A DNA stretch of 44,213 nt, the filler included, from Jimgerdemannia flammicorona (Eukaryota), in assembly GCA_003990765.1 (NCBI GenBank). It is 2 parts of 2 records of this genome, joined end to end, with 100 filler letters (N's around TTAATTAATTAA, not from the genome) between each part and the next. Parts side by side here need not be neighbours in the genome. Positions count along the whole stretch, not along the records: positions 22,158 to 44,213 come from RBNJ01001343.1; 1 more part is not named here. The stretch is one strand, 5' to 3'. Positions 8,601 to 44,213 of the stretch are shown here, piece after piece (within the stretch, counting starts at the first letter, position 1; each line of letters opens with the position of its first letter). The notes beneath the pieces were generated by a model, which had not been told where the DNA came from, made no database searches, and saw only the letters and a list, made by a program, of their open reading frames with translations. Position numbers and translations under genes: made by a program.

Positions 8601-9305
8601 CTCAACTCCCCAGTGATCTGATCAAGGACACCACTAGATATCTGTTGAATCCAATATATTATCCCAGCATTCTGCTATCAGAATCCAATCGATCCTCATT
8701 TCCACCAAGTCCTCTCCAACTGGGTGCCACCTAGTAAATGGCCCTGGTCTCTCCCCTTGACATTATCATACCCCATCAACCAGTTCCATATCCCTCTCAA
8801 CCTGAAGCCATCATGAAAGCCCAGCAGATACAGCTACACCAACTCCACCATCAGATCTATCTAATGTCCTGTCATGTACTATATTAAAGTCTCCACCCAG
8901 AATATCCAGCCCAACCTCATTGTGATCTCCCCAAGTCAGCCAACCCTCTACCCATTGGTTTCACTCCCTGCTAACTGCTGGCAGATAAGCAGAGCTGACC
9001 ACTAGTCTATCTCCAGCTCCTCCTTTCAATCTCCCCCAGACCAATTGATCACCATATATCTCAACCTCCTTCAGCTCACCTCTCTCCAAGCCAACCAAAA
9101 TGCCCACCTGCTCATTCCAACCTGTACTTCCATATTACTCTCTGCTCTAATCCTCATAATCTTGCTCCCCATAGACTTGAATATCCTGCAGAAATACCAC
9201 ATCATACCTCCTAACCTTCAGCCAATGAAATAGATGCTTTGCTTCACTCTATCATGCAAATCATTGATATTTAATAATAAAATAAGTTGACTGTTCATCA
9301 TCATG
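5680..9305 (-). pseudogene. LINE ORF2: APE endonuclease, RT, C-terminal Cys/His motif
   Basis: ILGGDFN..LDR (~8855-8905), SDH (~8613-8621), WQLN, SPGEDGLP, NWWPIMLLN, GMPQGDPILPLLY, FTDD, CKWCC..HIMAAC. Confidence 0.9.
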
Positions 9306-9309
9306 AATA

Positions 9310-19324: not shown

Positions 19325-20552
19325 TTGGAGAGAGGAAAGAAAAGAGAAGATAAAGGAGAGAGAGAAGAGGAGAATATATAATAGATTATTTAACAGAAGT
19401 AAGCAGGTCATAAATAATAGAAATAGAATAGTTATAGTAGTAGACCAAGAAGTTATCAAGAACTCAAACAGTCAACACTCAGTCAAAATGATAGGAGCAG
19501 TATAAAATAAGATAATAAATCTTATTCTAAATATACTTATAAAGAGTACAATGAGGATGATTGGAATGATAGTCAGAGAATGTTGGAAATGAGAGAATTT
19601 AAAATAAACAATAGTCTGAAAGAGGAAAAGAGAAATGGAAAGATCCAAAAAGAGGATATTAGTTATACTGAGTATCTAAGTAATAGAATGATGAAGAGAG
19701 TAGATACTATAAAATATACTGGAGATATTAATACCAGCAATAGCAAGGATAATAAAGTCATCAATATAGTGGTAAAAAAAAATATCTCTAGTCCAGAAGG
19801 TAATAGTAAGTGGTGAAGAAGTATCATATAATATATGAAGCTCTTGAACCAAGCCAATAATATTAGTAAGAGTGGGGCAAAATTCATTTCTATAGCAATA
19901 CTAGAAGTTGCCAATAGTTGACTTAAAATAATTTAAGTAATAGATGAGGAGCATAAGCTCAATAATAAAAGCCAATGAGACTGGAAAATCTAAAGAAAAA
20001 ATAATAGAACTCAGAAAATAAAGGCAATCACCAATCTCATCAAATTGAATAGCAGTGTAGAAAGAGGAGAAATTACCAGAGACCAAGTAAAAAATATAAT
20101 AAATAGGTATAATAGTAAAATAAAAAAGTATAAGCTCCTGAGTATTATAAAGAATCATATATATATATTTAGGCCCAAGATAGTACTGTAAAAGTATTAT
20201 CTAAGAGAGAAAGAAATGTGATAACTATTTTGAGATCTCAGTAGTAAGTGAGCAATAGATAGCTGTGATGAGATACTAAGCTAAAGTAGGCTTATGAACT
20301 TTAGGAAGAGTATAGAAAATCAAGAGACAAATATCTGATTAGGATAAAGAGTCTTAGAAGAAGTGAAAAATGAGAGATATAAATGGAGGATCTGAAAGCA
20401 AGGCTATATAAGTAAATTTAACCTAAAGAGAGAGAGTATCTTATCCAATTTAAGGACATATGGCTTATAAGCCACAGTACAGAGGAGGGAAATAAGCGCG
20501 TAACCTGCGCCTCTCTCTCTTCTTTCTCCCTCACTGCATTCATACACCCGCA

Positions 20553-20939
20553 ATGACCTTACTCGACAACGACGCATTCCTAACACAGCTCACCCGCTGC
20601 TTCGAAAAATCAAAGGCTAACGGCACCGTCTACATCACAATGAAGCGCCAGCCGGAAAAACCGCCAAAGAAGGACGCCAAGAAAGACGCTAACAAGGATG
20701 TCCCCATGGCCGACGCGAAAGACGACGACGACGACCGCGAGCACCCATGCCTAGTGAGAGCCGTCTACAAAAAGACCAAGATCAGCGCCCTGGTACACGC
20801 ATCGAACACAGACCGATTCCAGTTCAACTACGGTAACATCGTTAAGGTCCACATGGACTCGCTCAAGAAGAAAGACCGCAAGGCCAAGACCGCGCTGAAG
20901 AAGCGTACCGCCAACAAGAAGCCCAAAGCGACGGCGTAA
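20553..20939 (+). CDS. SRP14: Signal recognition particle 14 kDa subunit
   Basis: Intact 128-aa ORF: LLDNDAFLTQLTRCFE..GTVYITMKR..CLVRA..KISALV..F...Y..IVKVHMDSLKKKDRK, the characteristic SRP14 pattern; GC- and CpG-rich. Confidence 0.95.
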   Translation: MTLLDNDAFLTQLTRCFEKSKANGTVYITMKRQPEKPPKKDAKKDANKDVPMADAKDDDDDREHPCLVRAVYKKTKISALVHASNTDRFQFNYGNIVKVHMDSLKKKDRKAKTALKKRTANKKPKATA

Positions 20940-22057: not shown

Positions 22058-22157
22058 NNNNNNNNNNNNNNNNNNNNNNNNNNNNNNNNNNNNNNNNNNN
22101 NTTAATTAATTAANNNNNNNNNNNNNNNNNNNNNNNNNNNNNNNNNNNNNNNNNNNN
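22058..22157. other. Assembly gap with synthetic six-frame stop linker
   Basis: 44 N + TTAATTAATTAA (22102-22113) + 44 N = exactly 100 nt. Confidence 0.97.
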
Positions 22158-22184
22158 CACCTGGCCTACCCCTATTAGTGCCTC

Positions 22185-23343
22185 CCCATCTTGCCCATCT
22201 TGCCCATCTTGCCCGGTTGCCTGGTTGCCCATGTCATTTTTCCCATTTTGCCCATCTTGCCCATGTCGCCCATCTTGCCATCTTGCCCGTCTTGCCCATC
22301 TTGCCCATGTTACCTGCGTCTTGCCCGTGTCATTTTGCCTGTTTTGCCCGTCTTGCCCATGTTGCCCGACTTGCCGTCTTGCCCGTCTTGCCCGTCATGC
22401 CCGTGTTACCCATCTTGCCCGTCTTGCCTGTCGTTTTGCCCGTTTTGCCCGTCTTGCCCATGTCGCCCGTCTTGTCTTGCCCATGTTGCCCATCTTGCCC
22501 ATTTTGCCAGTCTTGCCCCTGTCGTTTTGCCCGTTTTGCCCATCTTGCCCATGTCGCCTGTCTTGCCGTCTTGCCCGTGTTGCCCATCTTGCCCATTTTG
22601 CCCGTTATGCCCGTCTTGCCCGTTATGCCCATCTTGCTCATTTTGCCCGTTTTGCCCGTCTTGCCCATTTTGCCCGTCTTGCCCATTTTGCCCGTTTTGC
22701 CCATCTTGCCATGTCATTTTGCCCGTTTTGCCCATCTTGTCCATGTCGCCCGTCTTGCCGTCTTGCCCATCTTGCCCGTCTTGCCCGTGTTACCTGTCTT
22801 GCCCATCTTGTCCGTCTTGCCCGTCTCGCCCATCTTGCCCGTCTTGCCCATCTTGTCTGTCGTTTTGCCCGTTTTGCCCATCTTGCCCATGTCGCCCGTC
22901 TTGTCTTGCCCGTATTGCCCATCTTGCCTGCTTTGCTGGTCTTGCCCTGTCGTTTTACCTGTTTTGCCCATCTTGTCCATGTCGCCCGTCTTGCCGTCTT
23001 GCCCGTGTTGCCCATCTTACCCGTTTTGCCGGTCTTGCCCGTGTCATTTTGCCTGTTTTGCCCATCTTGCCCATGTCGCCCATCTTGCCCATGTCGCCCG
23101 TCTTACCATCTTGCCCATGTTACCCATCTTGCCTGTTTTGCCCGTTTTGCCTGTCTTGCCTGTCTTGCCCGTCTTGCCCGTCTTGCCCGTCTTGCCTGTG
23201 TCATTTTGCCGGTTTTGCCCGTCTTGCCCATGTCGCCCATCTTGCCGTCTTGCCCATCTTGCCCATGTTGTCCGTGTTGCCCGTGTTACCCATGTTGCCC
23301 ATGTTGCCCGTCTTGCCTGTGTCGTTTTGCCCATCTTGCCCCG
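22185..23343. repeat. 9-bp tandem satellite (consensus CTTGCCCRT) with irregular higher-order units
   Basis: Directly visible; variants CTTGCCCGT, CTTGCCCAT, TTTGCCCGT; recurrent GTCRTTTTGCC marker. Confidence 0.95.
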
Positions 23344-23505
23344 AAATTCTTGAAATCCTTGTAACTTGCTGAAACTAGAAGCTATGGCTATGCTGAAAAG
23401 ACCAGGCGGGACTCCTATATCTAAGGGATGAGGTACACCTGTTGGCGCTCCTTGGAGCCTATATTTGTGACCTCCAAAACTTGAGAAGCTCACCATCCTG
23501 GTGGC

Positions 23506-23904: not shown

Positions 23905-24337
23905 GACCCAGATCTAAGGTACTGTATTGTACACAAATATGGTGCGGCGCACGTGCAGCACCAACAAATACTGCTCCGGCGACTCGAGTCTTCACAAAAC
24001 CCCCACATTTTCATATCTTTTAGGCATTCAGATACACTTATACCCTCACAGCTACACATTCTATTGTATTTGTCTCCATTATGAATGCCTATAATGGTGA
24101 CAAAGAGGTAGAGTCTGTGGTGCGTCGACTGCTATGTGTGCTAAATAGTCTTAGTGAGGTCAAACCATATAATAATACACCCTCTCCTAGTGTCAGGAGT
24201 CTTCTGGAAAATATTTTCCAGAAGACTATGATGCGTTTGGTGATGTAGATGCTTGCAACGTAGCTTAAATTATATGTTACATTTATAAGATCTATCATCC
24301 TGAGATGATAGATCTAAAATCAATACAATAAAAGGAT

Positions 24338-24421
24338 TGCTCTGAAGTGGATTCGAACCACTATCCAACTGCAACAGTATATGTGTAAATCAGTTGCACT
24401 ACCAATTTGAGCTAATGGAGC
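24338..24421 (-). tRNA. Intron-containing tRNA-like gene/pseudogene (anticodon reads TAC under canonical numbering; identity uncertain)
   Basis: A box TAGCTCAAATTGG; perfect T arm AGTGG-TTCGAAT-CCACT; acceptor GCTCCAT/TCAGAGC pairs 6/7 if two CpG transitions are reversed; ~10 extra nt in anticodon loop; T4 run downstream. Confidence 0.65.
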
Positions 24422-25435
24422 CAATTTTCTAGCATTGTGTAACTGCATAGTGCTTTCTACTAGAAATCTGTAGATTCATCAGTGGTGATTTCGGATCTAT
24501 GGATCGTTTTCGCTGCATGGATATTTCATTTGCATTCTGCTCAGAGGTGACTGGGACTATGCACACAATATGGGAAATATTCGAGTATCTTACTCCTCTC
24601 TTTGCACCATTTAGGCTTCCGTTTGTTATGAATAATTTTTTGGGGTTTAATGTATTTATGGCAGTTTTTATTAACACCGGGACTCAGTTTGACTTGAACA
24701 AACATGGGAATTGTGATCGGCTCAGATTGTCGTATATCGGTATCTATAGAAACGTCGATCACGAAATTACATCAGGCCCCCACATTTTCTGGCATGGAAA
24801 ATGAGGATTTTGGATCAGTGAGATACATGACCCATGCCTCCGCTGCCACAGATTGTGATTTTGTTTGGTAACAGCTGCGCAAGATTCTTACTGTTGGAGA
24901 TGTGGTTGACAAACAAATCATTCTTTCTCTGTTGTCGAAAGGGTCGGAGAGTGGACTGATCATATATCACTCAAATAATATCCTATGTTAAAATATTACC
25001 TAGTATAATTTCAACCTTCTAAAGCATGAGGTTGGTAATGATGATATAGTTGAATTACATTCTCTTCTCTTTATATTCTCTCAAATCAATGGTTAATTTG
25101 AAATTAGCATATGGTAGATAAAATGCCTAAAACGTATATTTGTATTGTACTAACCAAAACCTACTTTATATTTCTAACTAAATCTTGTTTTTTTTTTGTT
25201 ATTCTAATAAAATCTTGCTTTTCACTAACCAAATGCTGAATTTGTTTTTATGCTACTAAGAGTATTTCATTCGGATTATGGACTAAACGAAATTTGAACT
25301 CCACCCAGGATACTGATGATATCCAACTTGATCCTTTTGGATGGTATTTGACTAATTTCAGATCTATCAGGACCACTGCAATTGCTCTCTAGTTCGGCCT
25401 GCGAGGCAGTGCGATGGTGATCCTTCTTTGAATCG

Positions 25436-25990
25436 GTGAGCAACTGGTTGGGCAGTTTGGCGGTGGGCAACTGGTTGGGCAGCTTGGTGGCAAGCAACTG
25501 GTCAGACGGCTGCTTGGCGGTGGGCAACTGGTCAGACGGCTGCTTGGTGGCGAGCAACTGGTTGGGCAGTTTGGCAGTGAGCAACTGGTTGGGCAGTTTG
25601 GCGGCGAGCAACTGGTTGGGCAGTTTGGCGGTAGGCAACTAGTTGGGTGGCTTGGTGGCAAGCAACTGGTCGGACGGCTGCTTGGCGGCGAGCAACTGGT
25701 CGGACGGCTGCTTGGCGGTGAGCAACTGGTCAGACGGTTTGGCAGCGAGCAACTGGTCAGATGGCTGCTTAGCGGTGAGCAACTGGTCGGGCGGTTTGGC
25801 GGCGAGCAACTGGTTGGGCGGTTTGGCGGCGAGCAACTGGTTGGGCTGCTTGGCGGCAGGCAACTGGTTGGGTGGCTTGGTGGCAAGCAACTGGTCAGGC
25901 AGTTTGGCAGCGAGAAACTGGTTGGGTGGTTTGGCGGTGAGCAACTGGTTGGGCTGCTTGGCAGCAGGCAACTGGTTGGGCTGCTTGGCA
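25436..25990 (-). repeat. Coding-type tandem repeat of mixed 27/30-bp units (AKQPNQLLA / AKQPSDQLLT) within a probable spliced pseudogene
   Basis: Core GCAACTGGT repeated about 19 times; ORFs 25639-26079 and 25276-25638 share a frame across one TAG. Confidence 0.85.
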
Positions 25991-27134
25991 GGATGCCTCT
26001 CAGTGTCAGAGTCAGATTTGAATTCTTCACTGTTATTGATTTCGAATTGGATCGGTCTTAGCATACTCTTGCAATTCAAGCATGAGCAATGGAATCAATT
26101 TGGATATAACTCGAAGTTAAGCCAAATGAGGTACTTTTGGAAATTCCCTAGAAATGTGATAACCAGTATTTAGTTTATTTCTAAAAGGAAGTAAAACATA
26201 TGCAAATATAGTCATACCAAACAAAATATGCTGTCTCGATGGATGTCCATAAATTGTCAGATACGATTGACCAATATATGGCCCGGTTTTATGCTGCCGC
26301 TAGTACCAGGAGTACCCCCTTGGGAGTTCTAGTAGAATGCGACCTAAACATAGCATACACAATACATCAAAGCTATAGAATAATATAACAATTCATTCAT
26401 AGGTATTTTGATATTTACGTGTATTATTCTCCTTATGATATATGGCGAGCATGTTTCCCAGACATACCATTCGATCAGGGTCGTGGTGCTCTACCATATC
26501 GGCGCATCTCGGATGCATATATGTGCCATCTGAGTTGGCAGGCGGATCAATCGGGGTTGAATGGGTGGATTGTTTATGGTGAGGTTTGATGAGCATTTTG
26601 TTTGATAAAGAGAAATTGTAATTTAACCATATATTTATATCATTTATTTCATATATGTCAATCATTTCGCATAGGTTTCCACCAATGGTGAGTCATTGAT
26701 CACTTATCAGACGTTTTTGATCATGTTAATTACATTGGTGATATACGTATGTAGTTTTAATATATGACTCAGTATTATCATGAATCAGCCATATTAATCT
26801 TCATTTTCTAGTTTGAGTAAGAGTCTTAAAAGCTTTTAATATATGCATAAACCTGCTTCATGCAAGAATTACATTCTTCGTTCTCAACTGTAATATAACC
26901 TGTAGACATACATATGCAACCCTTAATCAGTATCCTTACAATTAATCAGTGATACTATGGTGTATGCTTTTGATGTAAGTTTGTGAACATACATATTATA
27001 CAATATATATTGCATATATTAATTTCACTAGGAAAGTAAAATGATTGAGTATTAACATCTAAGTGATAAATAAATTTAAATCATGTGAGTCTATCATACT
27101 ATAACCTATGTGTTTGAGTCCCATCCAACATATG

Positions 27135-29213: not shown

Positions 29214-29446
29214 ATGTATATCTATTCCACATGTAAATTCGGGGAAAGTGCAGTTGTGTGCCCAGTGGGACTGGTGTGCACCCATGATTGTCTACGCACA
29301 ATCCAGGATCATTATTATCAAACAAAATAATCTGATAGTTTCTTTGTGGGGTTTAAAAATAGTATTCACTGTTGTACGTCACTCATTTATTCAATTGATG
29401 GCAAGTAGTTCTGAGTTATCTAGAAACTAAGATACTAACTATTTGT

Positions 29447-29800
29447 TCAGATATCATATGGGCTTGTTGTGAATAAATCTGTATTATCTAGCTCCATGAT
29501 GAGCATCCATTCAGAATTGACCCCAAGACTCTCCATCGTAATGCTTTCATTATTCATGTCAAAGTTGACAAGAGATGTGCCATCCATTCTCTTCAAGATG
29601 AAATTGTCTCCTTTGGGATTGTGGTCTGTCTCGAGGGTGTGGAGCAGGCAGCCGATGTCATTGGAGGTTTCGATTTTGAGTAGATGTGTTGTTCCGTCGA
29701 GCCATTGAATGTTGATTGTCACAAATTTTCTGCTCGATGTATCGGCTGCTTTCTGAACTTCTGGACAGAATTTTTTAAAATAATTTTGTTCAGATGCCAT
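29447..29800 (-). CDS. Small ubiquitin-like/UBX-like beta-grasp protein, copy A (intact)
   Basis: VTINIQWLDGTTHLLKIETSNDIGCLL..FILKR..ITMESLGV..MLIME resembles the UBX/UBL pattern; duplicated at 41969-42325. Confidence 0.65.
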   Translation of the reverse strand: MASEQNYFKKFCPEVQKAADTSSRKFVTINIQWLDGTTHLLKIETSNDIGCLLHTLETDHNPKGDNFILKRMDGTSLVNFDMNNESITMESLGVNSEWMLIMELDNTDLFTTSPYDI

Positions 29801-29893
29801 TGTTTAATGAAGGAGTGAGTGGTAAAAAGCGTTTATTTATATTGCATCCTATTGACAGTAACAGTCACATATATGTTTATAACATAAGTATCA

Positions 29894-29948
29894 GGGAAAG
29901 TGCATTCATGTGGATGGGATAATCCTGTCCACGTGAATGCACTTTCCC
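29894..29948. repeat. Long palindrome family, full copy 1
   Basis: GGGAAAGTGCATTCATGTGGATGGGAT-A-ATCCTGTCCACGTGAATGCACTTTCCC; mismatches explicable as CpG transitions. Confidence 0.95.
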
Positions 29949-30199
29949 CAATGACTGCAGTTGTGTGCCCAGTGCGCCCATTACATGGGACTTGGACGAT
30001 CAAGCATATACTTTATAAAACATCGACTATACAAATTCTCTGAGTCGTATTTTGCGATGATTGTATAATGGATTCATCTCGAACGATGTAAGTAATTGTC
30101 TTGAACATTAATTTACAATATTCTATCACTAACACCCATTGTTATTATTTATTCCGAAGTCCATACTTTTGTTTCTATAAAAAAATGGAGTAAATTAAA

Positions 30200-33100
30200 T
30201 TACGATATATATAAAATGCCAAATATAATAATATCATTTACACTAACCTTTTCCACTCCGCCTCCACTGACTAAGGAATTCATTCGTTTGGTTACAGGAA
30301 AGGGTTTTATAGTTTTAAGTATCGCAATTACCTCTTCGCTGAAAAAAAACCTAGCATTTGTACTATCAATCATAATTGTTAGCTCCTGCGTCTCCTCATT
30401 ATATCCACCGACAATGGTGGTCTTGGATAGCTGGACAATTAGTATACTGATGGACGATATGACATTAGGTGGGTATACATCTACAAGATATTGCAAGATC
30501 TGCTCCCTCTCCACAGTGTATGATGCAGGCTGCTTTTTGTTGGTGAAAAACATTTTGGGTGATGTAGTCTTGATAGCTGGTTCAGTATCGATTGTCAGAG
30601 AAAACTTGGCCTGTACAACTACTGGAATGCGTGTTATATTGTCATCACTGCTGCCATCCTCTGGTGGATGTACACAAATAATGAATACGACATCAGGACC
30701 TGTCTTTTTGGGTGGCATGAGAAATGTCTCACGTGGGTCCTCGAGATACAACAGCAGATTGTCCCTTCCACAGAGATTCTCAGGTTTGGTATCACTGTGG
30801 TGTCGAAGAATGGTAATCTGGCAGGAGAATACCCATGCAAGCCACTCGTATTTGCTAATGAATTGCTCGAACAGAGGATGGACATCCAGGCGTGGCTTCG
30901 AGTTCCATGTGTTGTCAAACAGATCGAAGAGTGGCTCGAGTAGATACCGTTCAAAGAGATCGCCGAGATGTTGAGGCGCCCAGCGGGCCTGCCCCATCTT
31001 CTTGAGCAATGTCTGGCTGATGGTCAAGCTGTTACGTGGGATGTCATCACCATCAAGGCCATCACGAATGAGACAGAAATATGCCATTGCTGCCAATGAC
31101 TCTGATAACCCGGCCACCACTACCACTGTACCAGCCGCACCATCATCGATGCTGACGAGCTGTGCAAACCCATGCTCCACAGCAAGCACCTCTTCTTTGG
31201 GGATGACAATGCTATCTGAAAATGCATGGTAGTTGAGCACCGCCTCCTCGATGACCGGCCATATTTTCGACTGCTCGCATATCAGCGAGAGACAGCCCTC
31301 CAGCTGAGTGACCAGGAGGTCCACCGTGCTGTTACGCCAGTATCGAATGGTCGCATTTGTGACTGTATCTGCTTCTATAGGCCCTTGGATGGCATTTTCC
31401 AGGAATCAGACAGTAAACCAACAATGGCCACGGAGATAGTCGAAAACAGACTCGATCTGATTGTCGGTGAGTGGCCTGAGAAACTGCTCAACAAATGCCT
31501 GCATCTCTGCAATGTTATCGAACAGTGTGTGACACTGATAAAATATGTCTTGTCAATCGATGCCTTTCCAATTGTGCTCCCTATCGCATCCATAAGATGG
31601 TCGATGTGAAGTCCTGTCCCCGCGAGTATGGTACATATGACACTATGTCCACCGACGATTCCCATCACGGTGTGCAGAAGTATTGTGAAATATGAGCATT
31701 TCTTCGTAGTCGATGTGGTAGAGGGATATATGTCCTGCTGCTTGGCGATGGCAATCTGCGCCTCATCTATTGCAACAGGTATCTTCGTGGCTTTGGTGTG
31801 CTCCAGGATCGTGTCAACAGTCTTGATAATATAGGTTTGAATATGGTCAGTATCTGAGCCTGCGAATATTTTCCAGAGATCAATCCAGAAGTCAGGAGGG
31901 TCGATGCCGACACTGCCTGGCAGCAACTGCATCAGAAGCCATATCTTTGGTGTGAATCTGGATGACCGCATTTGTGTAAGCTTCTTGAGGACATAGAGAC
32001 GTGCCACCAACACCACACGGGCCTTGACGAGTGCTTTGGCATTGTTACTTTCCAGTTGGTCACCCCATAGCCATGACGAAACGGAGGCTTTGTCCAAGTC
32101 TCTGGACCCCAGATTTCCATCAACACCTCCGGCATTGAGTGTGAGATATATGCCGAATGTCCAGCAGAACAGTTCATAAATGCTATGCGTTTTCCCAGCT
32201 CTGTTGATGTTGAATAAATATAAATTAGAAAGAGATATATGGTATTTATTGAATGCCAGTAAAATGAATACTTACCCAGATGTTCCAATCAGCATGAGCC
32301 ACACCTGCTTCAACATCCGGTCATGCAACTCACCAAGCTCATCTCGACTGATAAACCCCGAGTCATCTTTGCCTTCCAGTAGCGAATGCAATATCAACGA
32401 AGGCGTTCTTCCACCATTTACTGTAGGTATCCTGGCATTGTTGATATACATGGCACATGGATGATTTTCTGTCTGATACAGCTGTAATGGGAAGCCATTG
32501 GCGATTATCGATTCAAACGTCAGTCACCACTCATGCCATTGGGCATCCGCTCTGGCTCGGATCATTTCAAATAGGGCATCAATCTTGTCATCTACAGCTT
32601 CAGTCAACGCTGCTGGCAATGGTGTGTCTATTGCAGTATAACATAACACATAGAAATTGGGGGTCAATCTCAATGGACTCTATCATTTTTAAATATTGTT
32701 CACTTATAATATGTTAAGTATTATTTATACTAATATACAGCTATTATAATATACATTTCACCGTGTGTGTTGTTTCATCCGAGTATAAGGACATTTCAAA
32801 TCGCGTTGTATTGGTAGACATAACCTCCCTCCATACCCCCGCACAGCATTCGTAATCAAAGTCACCCTCCAGAGACTATCACCATGCCACCTATTGTTGA
32901 CTATATTTGTAGCCTTTTTTTGTGAGAGTACCAGCATACCTTCAATAGTGCGATTCAGAGCTCCCAATATTGACGGTCTGTGTGAGTTGTCTGTGGGTAT
33001 AATAATGATATTGTCAGTATATAATATATAATACATTTTAATAGTCAACAATTTCAATATCTAATCATTACCTACAAGTACTTGTGCAGTCAATCTGACA

Positions 33101-33462
33101 ATGGATTCAGTGTATTCAATAATGACATGAATGTACTCATCATTGAGAAGATCGGGAAAGCACCTCTGTACTTTGAACAATACTGGTAGTTCTTCACCAC
33201 CTAATACCTCAATGATGGCGGAGTTGGGGTTGGCTTGTAATGCAGTGAGCCTATCGTTCAGCGTATAGAGGGGTATGTTGACCTTCCAGAGAGTGAATTC
33301 ATTGATGGCGACATGATCAAAGTGTGGGACTAGCTTTGCCTTGATATGTTCTCATAGATTGTCAATACTGGCATTTTGGTGAATTGTAATAGAAAACATA
33401 TGTCTGGAAGGAGGGGTCTCGCCGTAGACAAGACAGTTGAGCATGATGTTATCGGTTGATAT
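30200..33462 (-). pseudogene. Crinkler (CRN)-type gene: ubiquitin-like header, P-loop NTPase, PD-(D/E)xK REase; spliced, disrupted
   Basis: LNCLVYGE..F.I.I....IDNL*EHIK...FTLWKVNIP...IHVIIE header; Walker A GTSG/AGKT split by an intron (~32207-32275); Walker B PVAIDEAQ; GPDVVF...VVQAKFS. Confidence 0.88.
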
Positions 33463-33829
33463 TCTGTATATAAATGGTAGACCTTTATTAGTATTGGTAT
33501 AAAGTTCTGGTAGAAATGTGTTTGGTTTATACAACTTACTGTAGTTGTGATTGTCGCGTTATCAAACCAGTTGTGGATTATGTATTAACTAAAGTGGCTT
33601 GGTATTAAAGTCAACAAATTACTTGGAGACATCATGCATTCCTTATAACAGTCTCACTTATAATTAGATGAGTCCAAGCCACAACTGAACCACCGACACA
33701 AGATGGACATGTCCTGTTGTGGAAACGTAGTGGCTGAGACAACCGTATCCAACAACTGTTTTTGTATAAAAATAAATTATATAAAGGGCATTACCACATA
33801 TAAATAATTGTATCCTCTGTCTGTGTGCC

Positions 33830-35166
33830 ATGACTCCAATTTCTGCAGAAGTCTTCCTAAACATATACATCCTCCTCAATAGAAGATGTGATATATTTGC
33901 AATCTCTCTTGTCTGTCGTATATTCAGACAATATACCAACCTGCCTCTGGCACAGGCACACTTGCTTGTTACACTATTCGGCAACACCATGTCTCTGGCC
34001 TGTGGTATTGCACTGCTTCCACATCTCATCGATGATAAGGTGTGTGAACTGCTTGAACACCACGGTGCAATAGTCATATCCCGCATACTGGAGACAGCCT
34101 ATTCCACCTCAGTTATTGATGATGAGACCAAGCAAGCAATTATCGAATGGTTTGCCAGATGCCAGATCGTGCTGCCCATGGACCGTATCTGGCTCAGAAT
34201 TTGTACAGAAATGGATGCATAGACAGATGCTCACTCAGCAGTAGAGATACCGTATGACAGTCAAGCTGTAAAAGACTTCATCCAATACATGGATGCTGGA
34301 GACTTTGTCCCAATCCCTTTCTTCAAGTACCATATGATTGAGGGAGAGCCTGCACAGTACTGGCAGATACTTAACGAACTGAAATCAAATGGAAGTTAGG
34401 AATCATGGATGGATCTTCTCTGTCTTGCAGCCATCTTGGCCCCTGAGGCATTGGAGAGAGCAGTCAGTTGTGAATACAGAGTGCCAGACTGGCCTGGACA
34501 GGATGTGTTTGAATGTCTCTGTGGTGCCGCAATACTGTATGGTTAGAGACAGGAGCCATGATGACAATGCTTATCGAGTATGGGCTCATGCATTTGGATG
34601 ACGAATACATTACCCAACGTTCGCTTACACCAGAATGCAAAATCGTCTTTCACTATATAACAGCGGAAAGCTGTATACCAGCCATCAAGGCAGCCACTGC
34701 AATTGGAATTGAGCAGTATGTTGCTACATTTATGACACAAGATGAGCTTGATGATGAAACAATTGAATACATGGAATATCTCAAACCGCAAGTACTATCG
34801 TGCACATCTCACATAAGGAATGCAATTGAACAATATGTGGTGCCAAACCACAGCAACAGCATGCCTGGGAAAATCAGATATACTCGCATACTGAACCAAC
34901 TTGCATTGTGGATACTGGAGCAATGGCCTCGTCCTGGCCATATCACCAGACTGGTCTTCGACAATCTTGTATTAAGCATGACCAGAGGTCTTGAGATGTC
35001 AGATGTTGTATCAAAATACCTTAAAGGAGGGTACATATTCTCTGACAGACATCGAGAGTGGATTACCAACAGTCCAAAAAATTTGGCGCTCGTGACAAGC
35101 TGGAGGAGCATGAAGACACAGCCACCTATATGGCTGTGGGCCCAGCAGGGTAGCCTCTGTAAATGA
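33830..35166 (+). pseudogene. N-terminal F-box-like protein, apparently intronless, with stops and a frameshift
   Basis: ISAEVFLNIYILLNRRCDIFAISLVCRIFRQ fits the F-box consensus; frame continues past TAG at 34220 and shifts near 34540 into ORF 34513-35166. Confidence 0.65.
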
Positions 35167-35533
35167 GTAAATAAATGATTTGCCCCATGTGACGTGTGTT
35201 CCAATTAGAGAGATATACTATAGTCGACAATTGAGTTTATTAGATGGCATCCCCATTACTATTTAGTAAGAAAGAGTCAAATAATATCTGAGCGACGTTT
35301 GCTGACAAATGAGTTTATTGTAATTTTACATGGTCGCATGTTCTCGAATATGTGACATCTCACCACCCTCCAATACTCAGATAGGACACAACAGATGTTG
35401 TTGACATATAGCATCTGCAAGAAGGAGCAACTCACGATATCACAGTAAATAAGTATGATATGTGGCTTGGTATCATGTGCCCCAACAGAAGACATATAAA
35501 ACTAAATACATACTTTGGTACATACACCTAACC

Positions 35534-36551
35534 ATGTCTACTAAATGTCTGCAAAATGCTCAGGAGTGCTTCTGCACCCTGGATGAATATCTCGAAGAAT
35601 TGATTACACGATGTCTAGTATCTAATATGCCATTTCCAAACACGGATACCACCTTCTATGCCTGGCTCAAGGAACTAATTATATCAGTTCCTATACAGCA
35701 GGAGCTGGTAAGCTATAGACTTTATTATTATTATTATTATTTTGCATCTTCTTTGTCATCCTTTATTCAATTTCTGTCCGCACTACTCACAGGAGCCTGA
35801 AATATCTACCCCCATACAATATACCCATAAACATCCTTGTGAAGAGGAGGGGGATAGTGGTGAAGGTCCATCTGCTCCAAAACATGCTCGCTTTGAAAAG
35901 GTATTCCTCTTTTTCCTAGATCCTAATTATATCAGTCATTTAGTAATATTCTGGTATATTTTATAGGATTTGTCATCGCCCCCTCCCCGCCACCGCCACT
36001 GTGGTATCTTGAAGAATATACAACAAGTATTTCTACAAACTGATAGAAGCCGGTCTCCAACCCCACCAATCTATGAGCCTACAGAGGATGAGCTAGCCCA
36101 GACGGAGTCCTTCAGGACTACTGTTATGGAGGTGGTAGCCAATCCCACACCAGTCCAGCTGTCTACTCTGAGGGAAAAATACTCACCGGACACACTTAGC
36201 GGACTGTTTGGCTCTGTTCCAGCTGCCCTGAAAACAGCTGGTGTATCATTCCCTTCAAGTGATCTTAAGGGTACTTTGGATCAACTGATTGCAGTAAAAA
36301 AGTTTCAATGCTCACTCAGGGGACCAGAAAGAGCTCGCTATGAACAGTAGATCAGGTAATGCTTTGGTTTGAAAAATTTAATCTTTCTTACAAATGTGAT
36401 GCTTCCACCAAATTTTGATGCTCAGGTAGTAAAACATGAGTATGGGGCACTATACTCTTGTGTATGCATTGCATATGAGCTGGCCCGCACACTACCTGCA
36501 ATGCCATTTTATGTAGTAGTTGACAAGAAACTTGTTATAATAGATACATAA
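35534..36551 (+). pseudogene. Three-exon hypothetical gene with premature stops
   Basis: ATG 35534; GTAAGC..CAG intron (~35707-35791) and GTATTC..TAG intron (~35901-35967) join ORF pieces in frame; stops near 36348 and 36357. Confidence 0.55.
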
Positions 36552-36732
36552 CAAATTGTATAATTTCAATAGATAGATTCCTATAGTATTATATTGTCTG
36601 TCAGTTCAGTACAATTGATATAACAATTTTCGATAACATACATCTTATTCATCAATATTCCTTAGACTGCTGAGACACTTCAAAAGAGGCTGTTTTAATA
36701 GTTTTAGAAACACCCGATGATGATGGAAAGAA

Positions 36733-37807
36733 CTAGGAAGAACACGAAGTTGTGAAGGGTCTCATCAACGTGTCCTTGTTTAAGAGACCTCTCCATGCAA
36801 TGTCTCCTGCTTCAAAATCACCAACAAGACTAATATCATCACAGTCTGAGCAAGTACCCCCTAAAATGTAATTTATTGTATAGCTGCACATTTCCAATAA
36901 ACAAGTACAGTCTATCAAACTATCTGTGAATGGGTGGATGGCTTGCTCATGCCAATCATAGGCCACGACACTCTTCACACTTCGGTCTGCATTCTGGCTC
37001 ATCTTCGGTGACTCTTGGCAGCCAGAAGGCATCAATGAGAGCGAAGTCTGTACATGCCTTTGCTAGACTCCATCGGTGGTCTACCTCTGGATGAAGGATT
37101 CCACGTATGAACTCGGAAAACACAGGAGTGTAGTTATGCTGGAATGCGCTATCATCATTTAACACCTCATTAATGATTGCCTGTTTACTACTGATGATCG
37201 ACACTTGGTTCATAAGAACTTGGTACAGACTGATGCCGAAGGACTGCACGTCGTCTTTTTCCAGGTTGAATCACTGCTGTGTATTGTATTCTTTACCAGC
37301 ATGAATTGTTGTACAGTCAAAGTCAAAAAGCTTCACCTCTGGCATGTTGTCTGGGTGGAATGTGTAAAATATACTCTGTGGCTCGAGGTTGTGGTGGTAG
37401 ATGCCACATCCATGAAGATAATATAGAATGTCGAGGACTTGGGAGAATATGAATTTGATATTCATTTGTACGTTGAGGTCATCCACCATAATCTGACATT
37501 CGCCCTCCTTTGGCATGGACATGAATTGACTGTATAAAGAGCCAATCACGGGCTCCATGAGTAGGTATATTGCATTCTGATCTTTGTGGTGATGAATAAC
37601 CCTTCTGATGTTGGGATGTTGGGCTGCTGGAAGGTTGTTGCCAATGCACCAGTTGTCGACAACCTTTAGAAAATGCACAGTTCCATCACTTGCTCTGGTC
37701 TTGTATATAGCGCTGTTCATCCCCTTGAGGATGGGTTCACCAATGATATTGACACCAAACATGAGGGCACTAGCATTCGGCTGCAGAGGTTGTTCACGAC
37801 ACAGCAT
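36733..37807 (-). pseudogene. Compact intronless Ser/Thr protein kinase-like gene with Cys-rich tail
   Basis: HFLKV, HPNIRR, IYLLMEP, YLHGCGIYHHNLEPQSI, VKLFDFD, DVQSFG, ILHPEVDHRWS; in-frame TGA at 37271; probable frameshift near 36960. Confidence 0.85.
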
Positions 37808-38214
37808 TTGGAATGAATATCGATTGCGCAGTGTGTTTCAATAGCAGTATGAGTTGGCTATTTATTCACTTGTAAACCAAACAATAAATGGCTATATCTA
37901 GTAGGTTGACATACACTGTAATATATTTAAATGCAACTGTATTTCTCCTGGGTAGTTAAGTTGCAGTTGAAACAAAGAAAAGCTGTGCTACCTTTCCAAC
38001 ATTGTATCATATATGGAGATTACTCATTTATAGTATATGAGCATCAGCAACAACGAAATAGGACTATTGCTGATGTTGTATTCTCCTGGATAACAAATGA
38101 TAGCTACTAGATTCAGATTGTAACTATATTTATTCAAATACATTTACTAATTATATTGTTATAATATATATACTTGAATATTTGTTGTATTAAATGTGAT
38201 AGGGTATTCATTGT

Positions 38215-38847
38215 TCATGGATCATCTATAGTTAGTTCTCCATCATCATACCATTCATCCTCAAAGGGTTTATCATCATCAGACCAATCATCGTAAAAGG
38301 TTGGTTCTTCATAGCCATACCAATAATCCTCAAAGATTTCGCCATCGTCATACCAATCATCCTCAAAGGTTTCGTCTTCATCAGAACAATCATTGTAAAA
38401 GGTTAGTTCTCTATCAGTATACCAACTGTCTAGGGTTGGTTCTCCATCATTATCAACAATTGGTGGTGGGGATTGAGGACGAACACAATTGGGATATCTC
38501 CAATTATCGTCGTCATCGTCATCAGTATCATCATCGTCGTCGTCATCGTTGTCATCGTCATCATTGTTGTTGTTGTTATTGCTATGATTGGGGACATCCC
38601 CATTGTGTTCGTCATTGTCGGGGTTATTGTTCGTATCAGCAGTGCACTGGATTTGGTCGAGATGTATGTCACGGGCTTGTATAATGTTGATATAGATGAT
38701 TACACGGAGCTGGGAGCTGGCACTTGGTTTTGATGGAAAACCAAAGGATTATGATCAGAGAGCTGGTTATTCTGTAGACAGTTTGCATATTTGCTGTTCT
38801 GAGTGTTGTAAGTCCAGAATGAACCTTTTTAACCCTTTGGTCATCAT
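38215..38847 (-). pseudogene. Highly acidic low-complexity protein with repeated Trp/Tyr-Asp motifs
   Basis: One frame with three stops (TAA, TGA, TAA) then a poly-N/D tract and repeats such as FEDDWYDDGE, FEDEWYDDGE, TFYDDWSDD. Confidence 0.5.
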
Positions 38848-39915
38848 TGGTTTGAGTACTTGTTTGGCCAAGATAGGGGGTTCGACTTAAATGGTACTGA
38901 CTTTAGCATCTGAGAAGATTTCTCAGTATTGTACAATTATAGCAACTTCATGTGAATAATATAGATGGAACCTACGACAACAGTGAGATTTATACAGCAT
39001 ATCTACTATATTTGCCCTCTGCCTCAAATATAGATGTGTGAGACAGAGGTACTGTTGGGACTTTTATACACAGTGATAAGTATATACAATAGACTCCGAC
39101 ATATGAGTTCAGAACAGAGTCTCTTGGACAGTGTGAGACCTAATTTATTTATAAATGGTATAACCTAGTTTGGGTTGTGTCAAGCGCAGTTTAAGCCTCT
39201 TGTCAAAACAGTCATGCAGAGTTCTGACATCATCCTTTCTTTCTACAAAACAAACTGTTCAACTAACATGTCACTGCATCCTACACTGACAACAACTACT
39301 ATTTCATTTGGTATGAAATAACCCCTCTTTAATCTCTTTAATCACTACAACTACCTCTCTCATTACTAATCACTCTCATGTTTATACCTCTTTCTTAGAT
39401 TCTACAAGAATTCACCCAGCATTCTTCCAACAGCAATGTCAACCTGTTGCTTTCACCGCTACAACTACAATAGCTAGTTTAGAATATAATGTTGCCAAAT
39501 TGAGCCCCATCTTTTTTGGGTACCCGACTACACCAAGCAAGAGCAGTACTCACTCAAACAATAAATATAGGCTGTGATGTCGAGTTGCATGTTGATAGTA
39601 TCCATTTTGCAACCACACTGACCACTACTACCACAGCACTTTATACTTGTATTGTATGCATATAATACGTTTATTCGATAAATAAAACATAGTTATTGGC
39701 TTAAAATTTTGTCCTTCCCAATTGCTGTCACCTTGGCAACAAACATATCTGCTGAGGCGACATCCAATTATACTGAGGTGTTGACTTTGGGTGTCAATAA
39801 TAGAAATATGCTGAGTTTCTTGATAGATTACACATGACGGATAAATGCCAGCCAGTGTAACCCTGGGCAAGTAATGTTGATTCCAAATTAGTGATATAAT
39901 TGTTCCAGGCCCACT

Positions 39916-39961
39916 ATGTCATTGTCGGGAAAAGTGAATGCACTTTCCCCGACAATGACAT
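39916..39961. repeat. Palindrome family, centre-deleted copy with different outer arms
   Basis: ATGTCATTGTCGGGAAAAGTG-AATG-CACTTTCCCCGACAATGACAT. Confidence 0.9.
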
Positions 39962-40913
39962 CACCAGTAGTTGTGATGGTCACCACCCAACGAATATTTA
40001 CAACAATTCGAATTTATTAGTAATTGTGCTAGAGCTACCAAACTTTACATCGTAAAGTGAATATTGACTGCTTATTTGGGTTGAATAATGAAAAAGGGGT
40101 TTCTCGTTCTTTGCTTGTATACATAGAAGTGTCGATGGAAGAGATCTTGTGATATGTGACTCAGATTCGGAAATAGGCTTCCACGTTGATGTTGTTAGTG
40201 ATATGTTACACATTATGCAAGTCAAGTATTTTGGACGACCGTCACAGTAATGCAATAGATGATCAGCTTATAAGTCGCTTGTTACAATATGACAACTCTT
40301 ATAAGAAAAGCCTTATATTCAACAGCATTTATGCCACTAAACACATTGACAAGAGGCTCTCACCTGGAGTTGTGTGCCAATGTATATGAAGCAGATGAGG
40401 TGTCAAGGTTCTCTATATATCCATTGGATAAAGAACTTGAATGAAGTATATGCATTCATATCTGATGTGTCAGACCAAGTGAGCTCCAAAATCTGTGCAA
40501 TGCCGACTAGTTATGATACTGATTTATTGCATGGGGTAATAATCTCTGACAACACTGGTAGAAACACCACCAGTGTTGTCTGTAAACTGCGCTTTTGCAC
40601 GGCAATAAATGGCTGATGCATTTTTGGTTATGTTCTTTGTTTGTCCCCCTTATATATGCCTTTTCATATGTCATCTGTTCATTTTGACTCTGGTTTTGGG
40701 TTCGCTCCCTTGATACCTGCTACCTTCTTCCTCCTCCATAAGCTGGGTAATTGAATCTCTCACTAAGTTTGTGTTGTCGGCTTTTATCTATAAAGATTAG
40801 AATTAGTAGAGTAAACGATTTGTTTTACATAGTTATATAAATCATTGCCTGTGAGGATAATGATATATTATGGAACTTGTATTGTTGTCTGTAAACATTT
40901 GCTTATTAGTAAA

Positions 40914-40965
40914 GCAACTGATTTTACACATATGCTGATAGTGGTTCGAATTCACTTCAGGGCAA
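40914..40965 (+). pseudogene. Degenerate second copy of the tRNA-like sequence (inverted relative to 24338-24421)
   Basis: GCAACTGATTTTACACATATGC-TGATAGTGGTTCGAATTCACTTCAGGGCAA matches the anticodon/intron and T-arm parts of the first copy. Confidence 0.75.
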
Positions 40966-41067
40966 ATATATTTTATATTGATATAATAGATAGAGAATAC
41001 AGATACGTTTATCGATAATGTTTTAGAATATACATCTCCTAAAACATCTCGACAACAGAGCATTGTA

Positions 41068-41532
41068 TTATTTACATGGTTTGAGCTCACCGAGCTCATT
41101 TAGCATACAAAACAGTTGACGCACTATTGGCTCTGTTTTTCTATCATTTATATCAGCTGATGCAGCAGCAACGCCATCAGTATTTAGTGCTTCGATATCC
41201 GCACCATTGCGAAGTAGAGCAATGAGTATAATAGCATCTTGCTCATCTCTGGTAGTGGTGGCAGTAATATTTGGAGTGTGTATGTGTTCCTGTAGCATTT
41301 CAGGTAACAACATCCACTTTTTGAGCATTACTACAGTATTATAGAAAATATGACCAACAGCTGTGTGCAATGGCGTATTGCCAAACACATCTGGGTTACT
41401 CAGCAAGGTTGCATCAATCAATGCTTGGATGTTTTCGATGTCACTACCTCTAATTGCATAGTGTAGTGTATAGTGCTCTTTAACTGTAGCGCGTTGGGCA
41501 TCAATTGCAGAACGTCAGACACCGCGATCCAT
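41068..41532 (-). pseudogene. Small ankyrin-repeat protein
   Basis: TLHYAIRG, DVFGNTPLHTAV, LLRNGADIEALNTDG; ATG 41532 with in-frame TGA at codon 6. Confidence 0.85.
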
Positions 41533-41700
41533 ATTTGCAAAGCCTAGAGTTGATGTGGAGTTGGTTAAAAGCTAAACAGGATGTATGCTAATTGAAATAT
41601 TATCTATACAGGATGGTCTTGGTATTCACGTAATATTATTTAAGAGTGTGACGTCTCACAAACACGTGAAGGTTTGGTAATCACAGACAATACGTCAGCG

Positions 41701-41761
41701 TTGGGGAAAGTGCATTCACGTGGATGGGATTATCCTATCCACGTGAATGCACTTTCCCCAA
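41701..41761. repeat. Long palindrome family, full copy 2
   Basis: TTGGGGAAAGTGCATTCACGTGGATGGGAT-T-ATCCTATCCACGTGAATGCACTTTCCCCAA. Confidence 0.95.
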
Positions 41762-41968
41762 TGACTGCAGTTGTGTGTCCAGTGGGACTAGTGTGTGCCC
41801 ATGATTGTCTACGCACAATCCAGAATCATTATTATTAAATAAAATAATCTGATAGTTTCTACACATTGTTTGTGGGGTTTAAAAATAGTATTCACTGTTG
41901 TACATCACTCATTTATTCAATTGATGGCAATTCTGAGTTATCTAGAAACTAAGATACTAACTATTTGT

Positions 41969-42325
41969 TCAGATATTATATGGGCTTGTTGTGAATAAAT
42001 CTGTATTATCTAGCTCTATGACGAGCATCTATTCGGAATTGACCCCAAGACTCTCCATCGTAATGCTTTCATTATTCGTGTCAAAGTCGATAAGAGATGT
42101 GCCATCCATTCTCTTCAAGATGAAATTGTCTCCTTTGGGATTGTGGTCTATCTCGAGGGTGTGGAGCAGGCAGCCGATGTCATCGGAGGTTTCGATTTTG
42201 AGTAGATGTGTTGTTCCATCGAGCCATTGAATGTTGATTGTCACAAATTTTCCACTCAGTATAATGTTATTCTGACCTTTATTAAGGTTTTGACAGTATC
42301 TTTCAAAATAATCTTTTTCAGCCAT
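41969..42325 (-). pseudogene. Ubiquitin-like/UBX-like protein, copy B (TGG to TAG stop)
   Basis: Near-identical to 29447-29800 from KFVTINIQ onward; stop at 42029. Confidence 0.75.
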
Positions 42326-42409
42326 TGTTTAATGAAGGGATGTGAGGTTTGTGGTGGTATTTATTTATAATACACCTATTGACAGTGACAGTTATGTACA
42401 TGTTTGTGA

Positions 42410-42487
42410 CGTGAGTATTGGGGAAAGTGCATTCACATGGATGAGATTATCCCATTCACGTGAATGCACTTTCCTCGACGCTCATGT
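42410..42487. repeat. Long palindrome family, full copy 3 with extended decayed arms
   Basis: CGTGAGTATTGGGGAAAGTGCATTCACATGGATGAGAT-T-ATCCCATTCACGTGAATGCACTTTCCTCGACGCTCATG. Confidence 0.92.
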
Positions 42488-42809: not shown

Positions 42810-43590
42810 TTATGGATATATAGTATCATAATAGGTGCTGACTACAACAGATTGTTTGGGCTTGCTACACCAAATTATATTGCTATACTGTTTGGCATTA
42901 TACCATTCCAAAATGATGTCATACTTCCATTTCTCCTCATCAAACATACACCACACTGCACTGGGGCAAAACTCCTCAGCAACCAGAGTCAGCATCTCAT
43001 CACCCTCGTCCTCGACATCGAAAACGGGGTGAATCTCCACATTAAGCCCCAGCTCAGTCACAATGGCATACAGCGTGCGATCACACCCCTGGAGTATTTT
43101 GGGAAATGTCATCGTAAATTCCTCTACTTTGCCATGGTCTGGTGTGAGTGGATATGCGTGTTGTAAGCCAAAGGCAAGCACACCACCATTGGGCATGAAA
43201 CCCACACAGGTGATAGCTGTGTTGAGCATCTTGTACAGTAACAGATGTCCGAGATTGAGGCTCGATGTTGTTGGGATGTCATGGTGTAACATAAGGTTGT
43301 ACGTGAGCATGATACCAAAGCCAGATGTGAGTGGATGGATGGTGTATGGACATTTCTTGCGGAATGCTGTCCATTGGATCTTTTCAGCATCCTTTGACCA
43401 GTCAAATAAGTTGGTAGTGTTCTTGTATCGCACAATGAGTTAGCCACCACAGCAGGTTGTTGGCGGACAGACAATAAGCAAAAGGTCACCATTGTTGTGT
43501 AGAGTCTCGTAATATGTCCTTCCATGGGGTGTGTGGATGGTGAGTTTCAGTAGCTGTGGAATGATAGTTGCATTGCCTGGGGCCATATGT
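42810..43590 (-). pseudogene. Fungal-type 2OG-Fe(II) oxygenase-fold gene lacking catalytic residues, 5'-truncated
   Basis: LLKLTIH..LLIVCPPTTCCGG*LIVRY..FDWS..IQWTAF..IHPLTSGFGIMLTYNL..FMPNGGVLAFGLQHAYP..LQGCDRTLY follows the family pattern GGxLxVRH..FDWS..IQWAAFYSDCEHEVxPVTSGHRxTLTYNL (recalled, not searched). Confidence 0.75.
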
Positions 43591-43593
43591 TAG

Positions 43594-44213
43594 CAGTAGT
43601 GCATCACAACTCGAGCCGACCCATGTACATATTTAACCTGACCCGGAATTATACGTCACCCATCTTTAACCCGACCCAGAATTATACGTCACCCATCTTT
43701 AACCTGACCCGGAATAATATGTCACCCGTCTTTAACCTGACCCGGAATAATACGTCACCCGTCTTTAACCCAACCCAGAATTATATGTCACCCATCTTTA
43801 ACCCGACCTGGAAACATACGTCACCCGTCTTTAACCCGACCCGGAATTATACGTAACCCGTCTTTAACCCAACCTGAGAAATATATGTGACCCAACCCGA
43901 GAAATATACGTGACCCGACCCTGACCCATATTTAACCCGACACAGACCTGTCTTTAATCCGCCTTTAAGCTACAAGGCACCAAAAAAAATATATTGCACA
44001 TCTAAGATATATTTAGAATAAACAAACAGAAACATAATTAGGAATCAGAAATCAAAATGAAATCGGAAATAAATAGGAAGTAAATCAGGAAAATAAAGAA
44101 CTTACCGGTGTGAACAGATCTTACTCTTCATCGCTATAAACCAACTGATCCTCCTCTTCATCGCTATAAACCAACTGATCCTCCTCCTTCTCATATTCTG
44201 AATCATCTTCCTC
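43594..44213 (-). mobile_element. Possible terminus of a DNA transposon (hAT-like) with subterminal repeats
   Basis: Oxygenase homology stops near 43594; TAGTGCATCACAAC then ACCCG repeats; minus-strand acidic ORF end EEDDSEYEKEEDQLVYSDEEEDQLVYSDEE* (stop 44121-44123); other end not in window. Confidence 0.4.
43632..43965. repeat. 33-bp tandem repeat (7 full copies, then degenerate), ACCCG-rich
   Basis: Consensus TTTAACCCGACCCGGAATTATACGTCACCCGTC, units starting 43632, 43665, 43698, 43731, 43764, 43797, 43830. Confidence 0.95.

Follow-up and report, generated by a model that had tools for sequence, protein, structure and literature searches.

The window analyzed here, a stretch of 44,213 nt from the genome of the fungus Jimgerdemannia flammicorona (GCA_003990765.1) in which parts of two records are joined end to end (positions 22,158 to 44,213 derive from RBNJ01001343.1), harbors five copies of one palindrome, designated P0 to P4. 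Tentatively, the palindrome is regarded as a small foldback-like or MITE-like (miniature inverted-repeat transposable element) repeat whose copies may act as passive hotspots of recombination and breakage. This reading is based on the occurrence of the palindrome in at least three unrelated contexts, its position at the ends of a duplicated unit and at the start of a younger tract within that unit, the apparently mosaic composition of one copy, the deletion of the centre from two others, and decay by transitions. According to the proposed mechanism, the palindrome would extrude as a hairpin or cruciform, or stall replication. It would then be broken and repaired from another copy by ectopic gene conversion or unequal exchange, or else by end-joining. 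Such repair could duplicate, convert, and shuffle the segments adjoining the palindrome. No present function for the host is indicated.

The first-pass annotation of this DNA had described three full palindromes with a 1-nt centre and two deletion derivatives, a description borne out by a repeat search, the frequency of an arm motif, and fold statistics. P2 (41692-41770, outer arms included here as for all copies) is the best-preserved palindrome; its core (41701-41761) consists of 30-nt arms that are 97% complementary around a T at 41731. P1 (29882-29960) has a core (29894-29948) of 27-nt arms, 89% complementary around an A at 29921. P3 (42409-42487) is both the longest and the most decayed copy, with 39-nt arms, a 1-nt centre, and a complementarity of 79%; its eight arm mismatches are all transitions. 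P4 (39916-39961) is a centre-deleted copy in which 21-nt arms, 95% complementary, enclose a 4-nt loop. The remnant P0 (29229-29252; nhmmer E-value 0.04) retains a diverged left outer arm and the first 12 nt of the core, and these arm pieces are fused straight to the right flank common to the unit described below, with an arm-motif match at 29243-29260. With up to three mismatches allowed, the 18-nt arm motif occurs eight times in comparison with an expectation of 0.17, a count reached by none of 100 shuffles, and all eight matches lie inside the five palindrome places. A search of the 44-kb window with an nhmmer arm profile revealed no further copy. Folded as single-stranded DNA, four copies yield z-scores between -5.96 and -12.57 on both strands (8/8), and none of 200 shuffles folds as well; the corresponding RNA folds range from -38 to -57 kcal/mol (z -7.4 to -11.8). 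When a 60-nt RNA fold was slid along 20-44 kb, nine clusters fell below -25.7 kcal/mol: four P copies, four sites within a coding tandem repeat of 27-nt units, and an unrelated hairpin (24186-24245). The palindrome copies are the strongest hairpins of the gene-bearing half of the window.

A perfect ancestor of about 77 bp had also been proposed. When the six arms of the full copies are compared, the inner 30 nt differ by transitions only, and a perfect ancestor of the inner ~61 nt is therefore reasonable. This does not extend to the outermost ~9 nt of the proposed 77-nt sequence, which are palindromic in P3 alone; the right outer arm of P1 and P2 carries transversions and a 3-nt indel. The ancestor was also said to contain two inverted TCACGTG boxes. 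Both CACGTG boxes are present in P2, while P1 and P3 keep one each and have the other changed by a single transition.

As short non-coding elements of 61-79 bp (G+C content of P2, 0.48-0.49) made of terminal inverted repeats, with 27-39-nt arms, a 1-nt centre, and stable folds, the copies have the form of MITEs. No exact direct repeat that could represent a target site duplication (TSD) was found at any consistent offset in four copies (offsets 0-44, k 2-9), in agreement with the annotation. TA/TA stands at the outer ends of the composite running from P2 to P3 and nowhere else. A TSD search that allowed transitions was too permissive to be meaningful, and Helitron-type ends, CACTA ends, and a common GTTGTG box on the right-hand side of the copies, all considered by eye, are unsupported with five copies. 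A Pfam scan covering 119 of the 134 stop-to-stop open reading frames (ORFs) of at least 75 aa in the window (the other 15 represent alternative frames of tandem-repeat tracts or lie antisense to included ORFs) revealed no tyrosine recombinase, protelomerase, HUH/Rep, polB, capsid, or DDE transposase domain; the annotation, too, had seen no cognate enzyme. The copies cannot be assigned firmly to the MITE class: there is no TSD, the number of copies seen is five, and no partner element was seen in the window.

The copies decay in a characteristic manner. Between the two copies of the duplicated unit, designated A and B, there are 56 transitions and 17 transversions, and the mutated cytosines, sorted by their 3′ base, amount to 12/24 for CpG, 31/121 for CpA, 6/51 for CpC, and 5/72 for CpT. 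This spectrum resembles that of repeat-induced point mutation (RIP) or of methylcytosine deamination. RIP proper is known from Ascomycota; a RIP-like spectrum (CpG > CpA >> CpC, CpT) is notable for a Mucoromycotina-like fungus. In addition, P0 has lost about 64 nt between two TGCA words and P4 35 nt between two GTG words. Both deletions thus occurred between direct repeats of 3-4 nt, and both removed the centre. Loss of the centre is the classic fate of hairpin-forming DNA, and PMC7999016 makes the same general point.

Neither the sequence nor the pairing of the palindrome shows a sign of purifying selection, as judged from covariation, the 79% pairing of P3, and a comparison with flanking DNA. 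In the four alignable copies, five pairs are double-changed, mostly in the outer arms of P4, both of which bear the same four changes relative to P3; 149 of 500 shuffles equal this value. P1 and P3 are 80% identical, no better than their adjoining 5′ flank (77%).

Homology boundaries and mosaic arms

Four of the five copies are located at the ends of one duplicated unit of ~0.75 kb, in the arrangements P0-unit A-P1 and P2-unit B-P3. Unit A (29253-29881, minus strand) comprises a 3′ flank, a small ORF of 117 aa (29447-29800), and a 5′ flank with a TATA-like box. Unit B (41771-42408, minus strand) is its duplicate, with a small ORF of 98 aa (42029-42325) that is ended early by a TGG>TAG change. 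The homology was placed by blastn (29249-29947 versus 41766-42474, 87% identity) and global alignment, and the flanks outside the palindromes were compared by a transition-tolerant local alignment against shuffles. The score was 57 on the right (null maximum 89) and 46 on the left (null maximum 76). Since both scores lie inside the shuffle null, the A/B homology reaches no further than the palindrome on either side. The left flank of P0 is unrelated to that of P2, as is the right flank of P1 to that of P3, and all six comparisons of the P4 flanks with every other flank remained within the shuffle null. In consequence, the contexts of the palindrome number at least three that are unrelated to one another. 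The coincidence of homology breakpoints with the palindrome, which the annotation had suggested checking, is accordingly observed at this locus.

The alignment of A and B is two-tiered. Positions 29249-29729 contain 458 matches and 19 differences (96% identity), whereas positions 29730-29948 contain 161 and 54 (75%; Fisher p 1.4e-15). The younger tract of ~481 nt (29249-29729 versus 41766-~42250), whose differences comprise 19 transitions and 0 transversions, begins at the palindrome and ends within the small ORF. A further segment, R′ (29949-29974), consists of the 26 nt to the right of P1 and repeats the start of the unit as it follows P0 and P2; homology ends at 29974. P1 together with these 26 nt (29894-29974 versus 41704-41784, 95%) resembles a truncated tandem array.

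The two arms of P1 have different relatives. Its right arm differs from that of P2 at 1 of 46 positions, and a derived A, the outer arm, and the 26-nt flank are common to both. Its left arm groups with the left arm of P3 and the old 5′ flank of the unit. Each copy would therefore join segments of different age or origin. The left outer arm of P0 is strongly diverged from that of P2 despite the 96% identity of the adjoining unit. Taken together, the discordant arms and the divergence of the P0 and P2 left arms argue against movement of palindrome, unit, and palindrome as one composite and for exchange at or within the palindrome. At locus B, the outer arms (P2 left, P3 right) are of one type, mutually complementary save for three transitions and one transversion, and the cassette-facing arms are of another, asymmetric type. 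Since the arms contain few informative sites, the data suggest, but do not prove, a switch of histories within the palindrome.

Beyond the window, a strict palindrome pattern gave no match in viral, metagenome, and prokaryote contig collections, which contain no fungal genomes. A looser gapped pattern matched 2, 2, and 0 loci in the three collections; the three inspected of these four loci are A/T-flanked bacterial hairpins of terminator-like appearance that have only a 12-nt arm word in common with P, and they were set aside as chance.

Several observations weigh against the hotspot reading. No TSD was found, nor was a transposase or autonomous partner among the window ORFs scanned. The window contains only five copies, which all fall within a 13-kb span, the remaining 31 kb being devoid of them; with so few copies, and none in the collections searched, mobility and family size are unproven. 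Because one duplicated unit accounts for four of the five copies, few junctions are independent, and the informative arm sites are limited to 15-nt outer arms and one shared derived core site. The palindrome is also much shorter and less AT-rich than palindromes with documented breakage. Every copy follows a minus-strand ORF and turns the same side toward it, which would not be expected if breakage were random. Finally, the four symmetric arm changes of P4 would fit selection on pairing, though not significantly.

Among the alternatives, the one that survives best, although it is judged unlikely, regards the palindrome as a passenger of local duplication: it would have arisen once at this place, for example through an inverted-duplication accident, and multiplied with the ~0.75-kb unit, with no role in rearrangement and no genome-wide family. 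The clustering of five copies within 13 kb, four of them at the ends of the two unit copies, fits this explanation, as do the repetition of the unit start beside P1 and the lack of copies elsewhere in the window or in the collections. However, P4 shows homology neither to the unit nor to any other flank, as far as can be detected. Because the left flank of P0 is unrelated to that of P2, and the right flank of P1 to that of P3, the palindrome alone is shared at those junctions. It is also within the palindrome that both the younger tract and the P1 mosaic switch.

If the copies do behave as passive hotspots, the locus would provide a compact natural case in which short perfect palindromes determine the limits of duplicated and converted segments within an accessory-gene region of a fungus. 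The footprints are clear: arms of mosaic composition, copies that have lost their centre, and a conversion-like tract of young age. It would also help to explain the shuffling of Crinkler-like, ankyrin, and kinase arrays in early-diverging mycorrhizal fungi. The finding would matter far more if the palindrome bounded many different modules genome-wide. On the basis of five copies in a single window, it represents a well-documented but ordinary kind of repeat.

Position relative to genes

The annotation had noted a gene 3′ end pointing at each copy. All five copies are indeed found 37-323 nt downstream of the stop codon of a minus-strand ORF, with the same asymmetric flank toward the ORF; of the ORF types concerned, only two have any gene support. 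P3 is in addition overlapped by an unsupported plus-strand ORF of 101 aa. P2 is situated ~160 nt upstream of an ankyrin ATG (41530-41532) and ~260 nt downstream of small ORF B. P1 and P3 precede the ATG of the small ORFs by 94 and 84 nt, respectively, and the conserved TATA-like box by ~55-60 nt. An AATAAA lies ~55 nt after the small ORF stop, well ahead of P0.

This arrangement has a possible explanation at the level of RNA, which is nevertheless considered improbable: minus-strand read-through transcripts would fold the palindrome into a hairpin of 30-39 bp that serves as a 3′-end or termination signal, or as a Dicer substrate for small RNAs. A precedent exists in MADE1, a MITE that gives rise to mir-548. 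The uniform position and orientation relative to ORF stops and the very stable RNA folds are in keeping with such a role. In Rfam searches in E-value mode, the only look-alikes of the copies were miRNA-precursor families, all far under threshold (24-38 bits versus thresholds of 43-91); they were discounted as generic hairpin matches. Furthermore, a hairpin 3′ of two ankyrin paralogues of the window maintains its pairing through double changes at 5 of 11 pairs, so that structure-conserved 3′ hairpins may exist in this genome. On the other hand, the only conspicuous hairpins in 24 kb are the P copies and one other, and most ORF ends have none. Covariation in the palindrome is not significant, the pairing of P3 is down to 79%, and the AATAAA is reached well before P0. 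Moreover, a head-to-tail array places any intergenic element downstream of some ORF.

Of comparably low probability is a promoter function, in which the CpG-rich palindrome with its two CACGTG boxes would form a dimeric site of the basic helix-loop-helix type driving the next minus-strand gene, perhaps bidirectionally. The distances of P1 and P3 from the small ORF ATG and the TATA-like box, and of P2 from the ankyrin ATG, are compatible with this proposal. The same is true for the distribution of CACGTG, since 4 of the 7 occurrences in the window lie within P. Outside P the motif is not enriched (3 in the whole window versus a rough 2-4 expected in the gene half). Yet P0 and P4 lack a supported downstream gene, and two of six boxes are already mutated. 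P1 and P3 are no more identical to each other (80%) than their flank (77%), and the boxes decay at the neutral rate. A perfect palindrome of 61-79 bp far exceeds the needs of a factor site, and the genes that would be driven are broken, small ORF B by the TGG>TAG change and the ankyrin gene by an in-frame TGA after codon 5.

Least probable is the cassette recombination that heads the roles listed in the annotation. Here, the palindrome centre would be the crossover site of a eukaryotic gene-cassette system employing an unseen recombinase or hairpin-processing nuclease, a proposal that we regard as highly improbable. Equally so is its attC-like form, in which a circular cassette bearing one P would integrate at a chromosomal P by crossover at the centre, generating P-cassette-P with hybrid arms. 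If true, an integron-like device that excises, inserts, and thereby shuffles small modules of the fast-evolving Crinkler-like, ankyrin, and kinase arrays would exist in a fungus of the Endogonales. The arm types at locus B match the prediction, with one type facing the chromosome and another facing the cassette; the same cassette is found in two unrelated contexts with P on both sides of each, and the ORFs that P follows are co-oriented. The part of the idea that holds is recombination at or in the palindrome. A dedicated enzyme is not needed, since homologous exchange in the 60-bp identical core yields the same hybrids, and none of any class was encoded in the ORFs scanned in the 44 kb examined. 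There is only one type of cassette bounded by P on both sides, present in two copies, and most gaps across 30-44 kb are without P. The copies are decaying and deleted rather than maintained, and they share one near-perfect sequence with random transitions, whereas attC sites are sequence-diverse and imperfect. Resolution sites of a large element or virus, also listed, are at odds with the fungal chromosomal context (SRP14, Zn2Cys6, retroelement fragments) and with the internal position of the copies in chromosomal DNA, and no protelomerase domain that would accompany telomere resolution was detected in the window ORFs scanned.

Genomic setting

SRP14, a Zn2Cys6 domain, and retroelement fragments, together with relatives in Jimgerdemannia and Endogone, indicate that the window is chromosomal DNA of an Endogonales-like (Mucoromycotina) fungus and not of a virus, as far as its coding content reveals. 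Pfam domains comprise dUTPase and RVT_1 (2.4-7.5 kb), SRP14 (20496-20936), a Zn2Cys6 domain with collagen-like repeats (23.0-23.9 kb), a Crinkler N-terminal domain (33064-33351, minus strand; E-value 4.4e-5, at the Pfam cut-off), a protein kinase (37274-37837), and ankyrin repeats (41071-41514). The SRP14 ORF is 99% identical to a partial J. flammicorona protein (73% coverage) and 78% identical to an Endogone sp. protein. For the ORF adjoining P1, a search of 1.84 billion representatives yielded 19 relatives, of which the best with a name is a hypothetical protein of J. flammicorona. Numerous genes of the palindrome region are broken. The Crinkler-like gene (30203-33351, minus strand) consists of the N-terminal domain and a C-terminal ORF of 401 aa with 19 relatives; many stops interrupt the stretch between the two, and the frame upstream of 31405 is stop-filled. 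A fragment of a Crinkler-like C-terminal domain, 30% identical, is present at 24574-24978 (minus strand).

The small ORFs of units A and B belong to no Pfam family and have no homologue among proteins of 64-205 aa. Atlas leads did not exceed 0.90 (a SUMO-like cluster among them reached 0.88), and nothing firmer emerged. The idea that the small ORF encodes a ubiquitin-like Crinkler header remains a guess, and the AlphaFold model (pLDDT, the predicted local distance difference test, of 38) was unusable.

The ankyrin-paralogue hairpins mentioned above (24198-24227 and 41018-41047) lie 18-20 nt after the stop codons of the two genes. They are part of inverted segments (24095-24430 versus 40895-41135, 75% column identity) in which the ankyrin C-terminus is followed by the hairpin and then by a tRNA-like sequence. 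In the comparison of the two hairpin sequences, one of the 11 stem pairs is single-changed and none is broken. The tRNA-like sequence (24338-24421, minus strand) scores 31.9 bits in Rfam (gathering threshold 29), a weak tRNA match that is the only one in the window at that threshold, and it is not called by ARAGORN; a degenerate inverted copy is located at 40905-40982. Another hairpin with a 14-bp stem (24286-24317) lies 20 nt from the 3′ end of the tRNA-like sequence.

The base composition of the window changes sharply near 20.3 kb, just ahead of the SRP14 gene. The first 20.3 kb, which contain the retroelement fragments with RVT_1 and dUTPase, hold 8 CpG in comparison with ~694 expected, and the gene-bearing rest (20301-44213) holds 663 versus 1054 expected. 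Strand asymmetry is strong in the CpG-free region (33% C and 12% G at 5501-11500; 11% C and 25% G at 15501-20300), which also harbors an old direct duplication of ~0.75 kb (12281-13029 versus 13958-14728; 68% identity, spacing ~1.68 kb). Three coding-looking tandem-repeat tracts (22106-23505, 25400-26030, and 43560-43910) are composed of units of 9 nt (Gly-X-Y collagen-like, beside the Zn2Cys6 domain), 27 nt (PNQLLAAKP-like), and 33 nt. Two runs of 44 N (22058-22101 and 22114-22157) mark the join of the parts, immediately upstream of the collagen-like repeat.

Comparison with known palindromic systems

Judged from search results, no literature was found on a comparable palindrome family in Endogonales or Mucoromycota. 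Similarities exist, however, with several systems described in other organisms. The palindromes that follow the hairpin rule in Mimiviridae are gene-specific and AT-rich and follow most genes of the virus. P shares with them the formation of strong intergenic hairpins downstream of ORFs, but it is one repeated sequence, follows a minority of ORFs, and resides in fungal chromosomal DNA. P resembles integron attC sites in being palindromic, in lying 3′ of small ORFs that share one orientation, and in forming hybrid sites where cassettes join. In contrast to attC, it occurs in a eukaryote with no integrase in view and with a single cassette type, and its copies are near-perfect and identical rather than cassette-specific.

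Foldback (FB) transposons terminate in long inverted repeats whose long arms are made of subrepeats; they generate TSDs and are tied to rearrangements. The composite delimited by P2 and P3 resembles a small FB element in being a unit with palindromic structure at both ends. Here, the outer arms of the composites (P0 left versus P2 left) are far more diverged than the interior, which argues against movement of the whole unit.

MADE1, a MITE derived from Tc1/mariner, consists of two 37-bp inverted repeats around 6 bp (PMC1784062). P is similar in its length of ~80 bp, its two inverted repeats of ~37-39 bp, its tiny centre, its very stable hairpin, its non-coding nature, and its position near genes. 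It differs from MADE1 in that no TA or other TSD is detectable, no mariner-like partner is seen, and five copies are seen; moreover, P is CpG-rich, carries CACGTG boxes, and has copies at duplication boundaries.

Palindromes as sites of breakage and rearrangement are treated in PMC7999016. The human palindromic AT-rich repeats (PATRRs) are described there as several hundred base pairs in length, more than 90% A+T, and mutually unrelated in sequence. P departs from this description, since it measures 61-79 bp, is about half G+C, and forms one sequence family. Nevertheless, P and the PATRRs have in common that near-perfect palindromes are associated with rearrangement, that hybrid palindromes and copies devoid of their centre are found, and that breakpoints fall within the palindrome itself.

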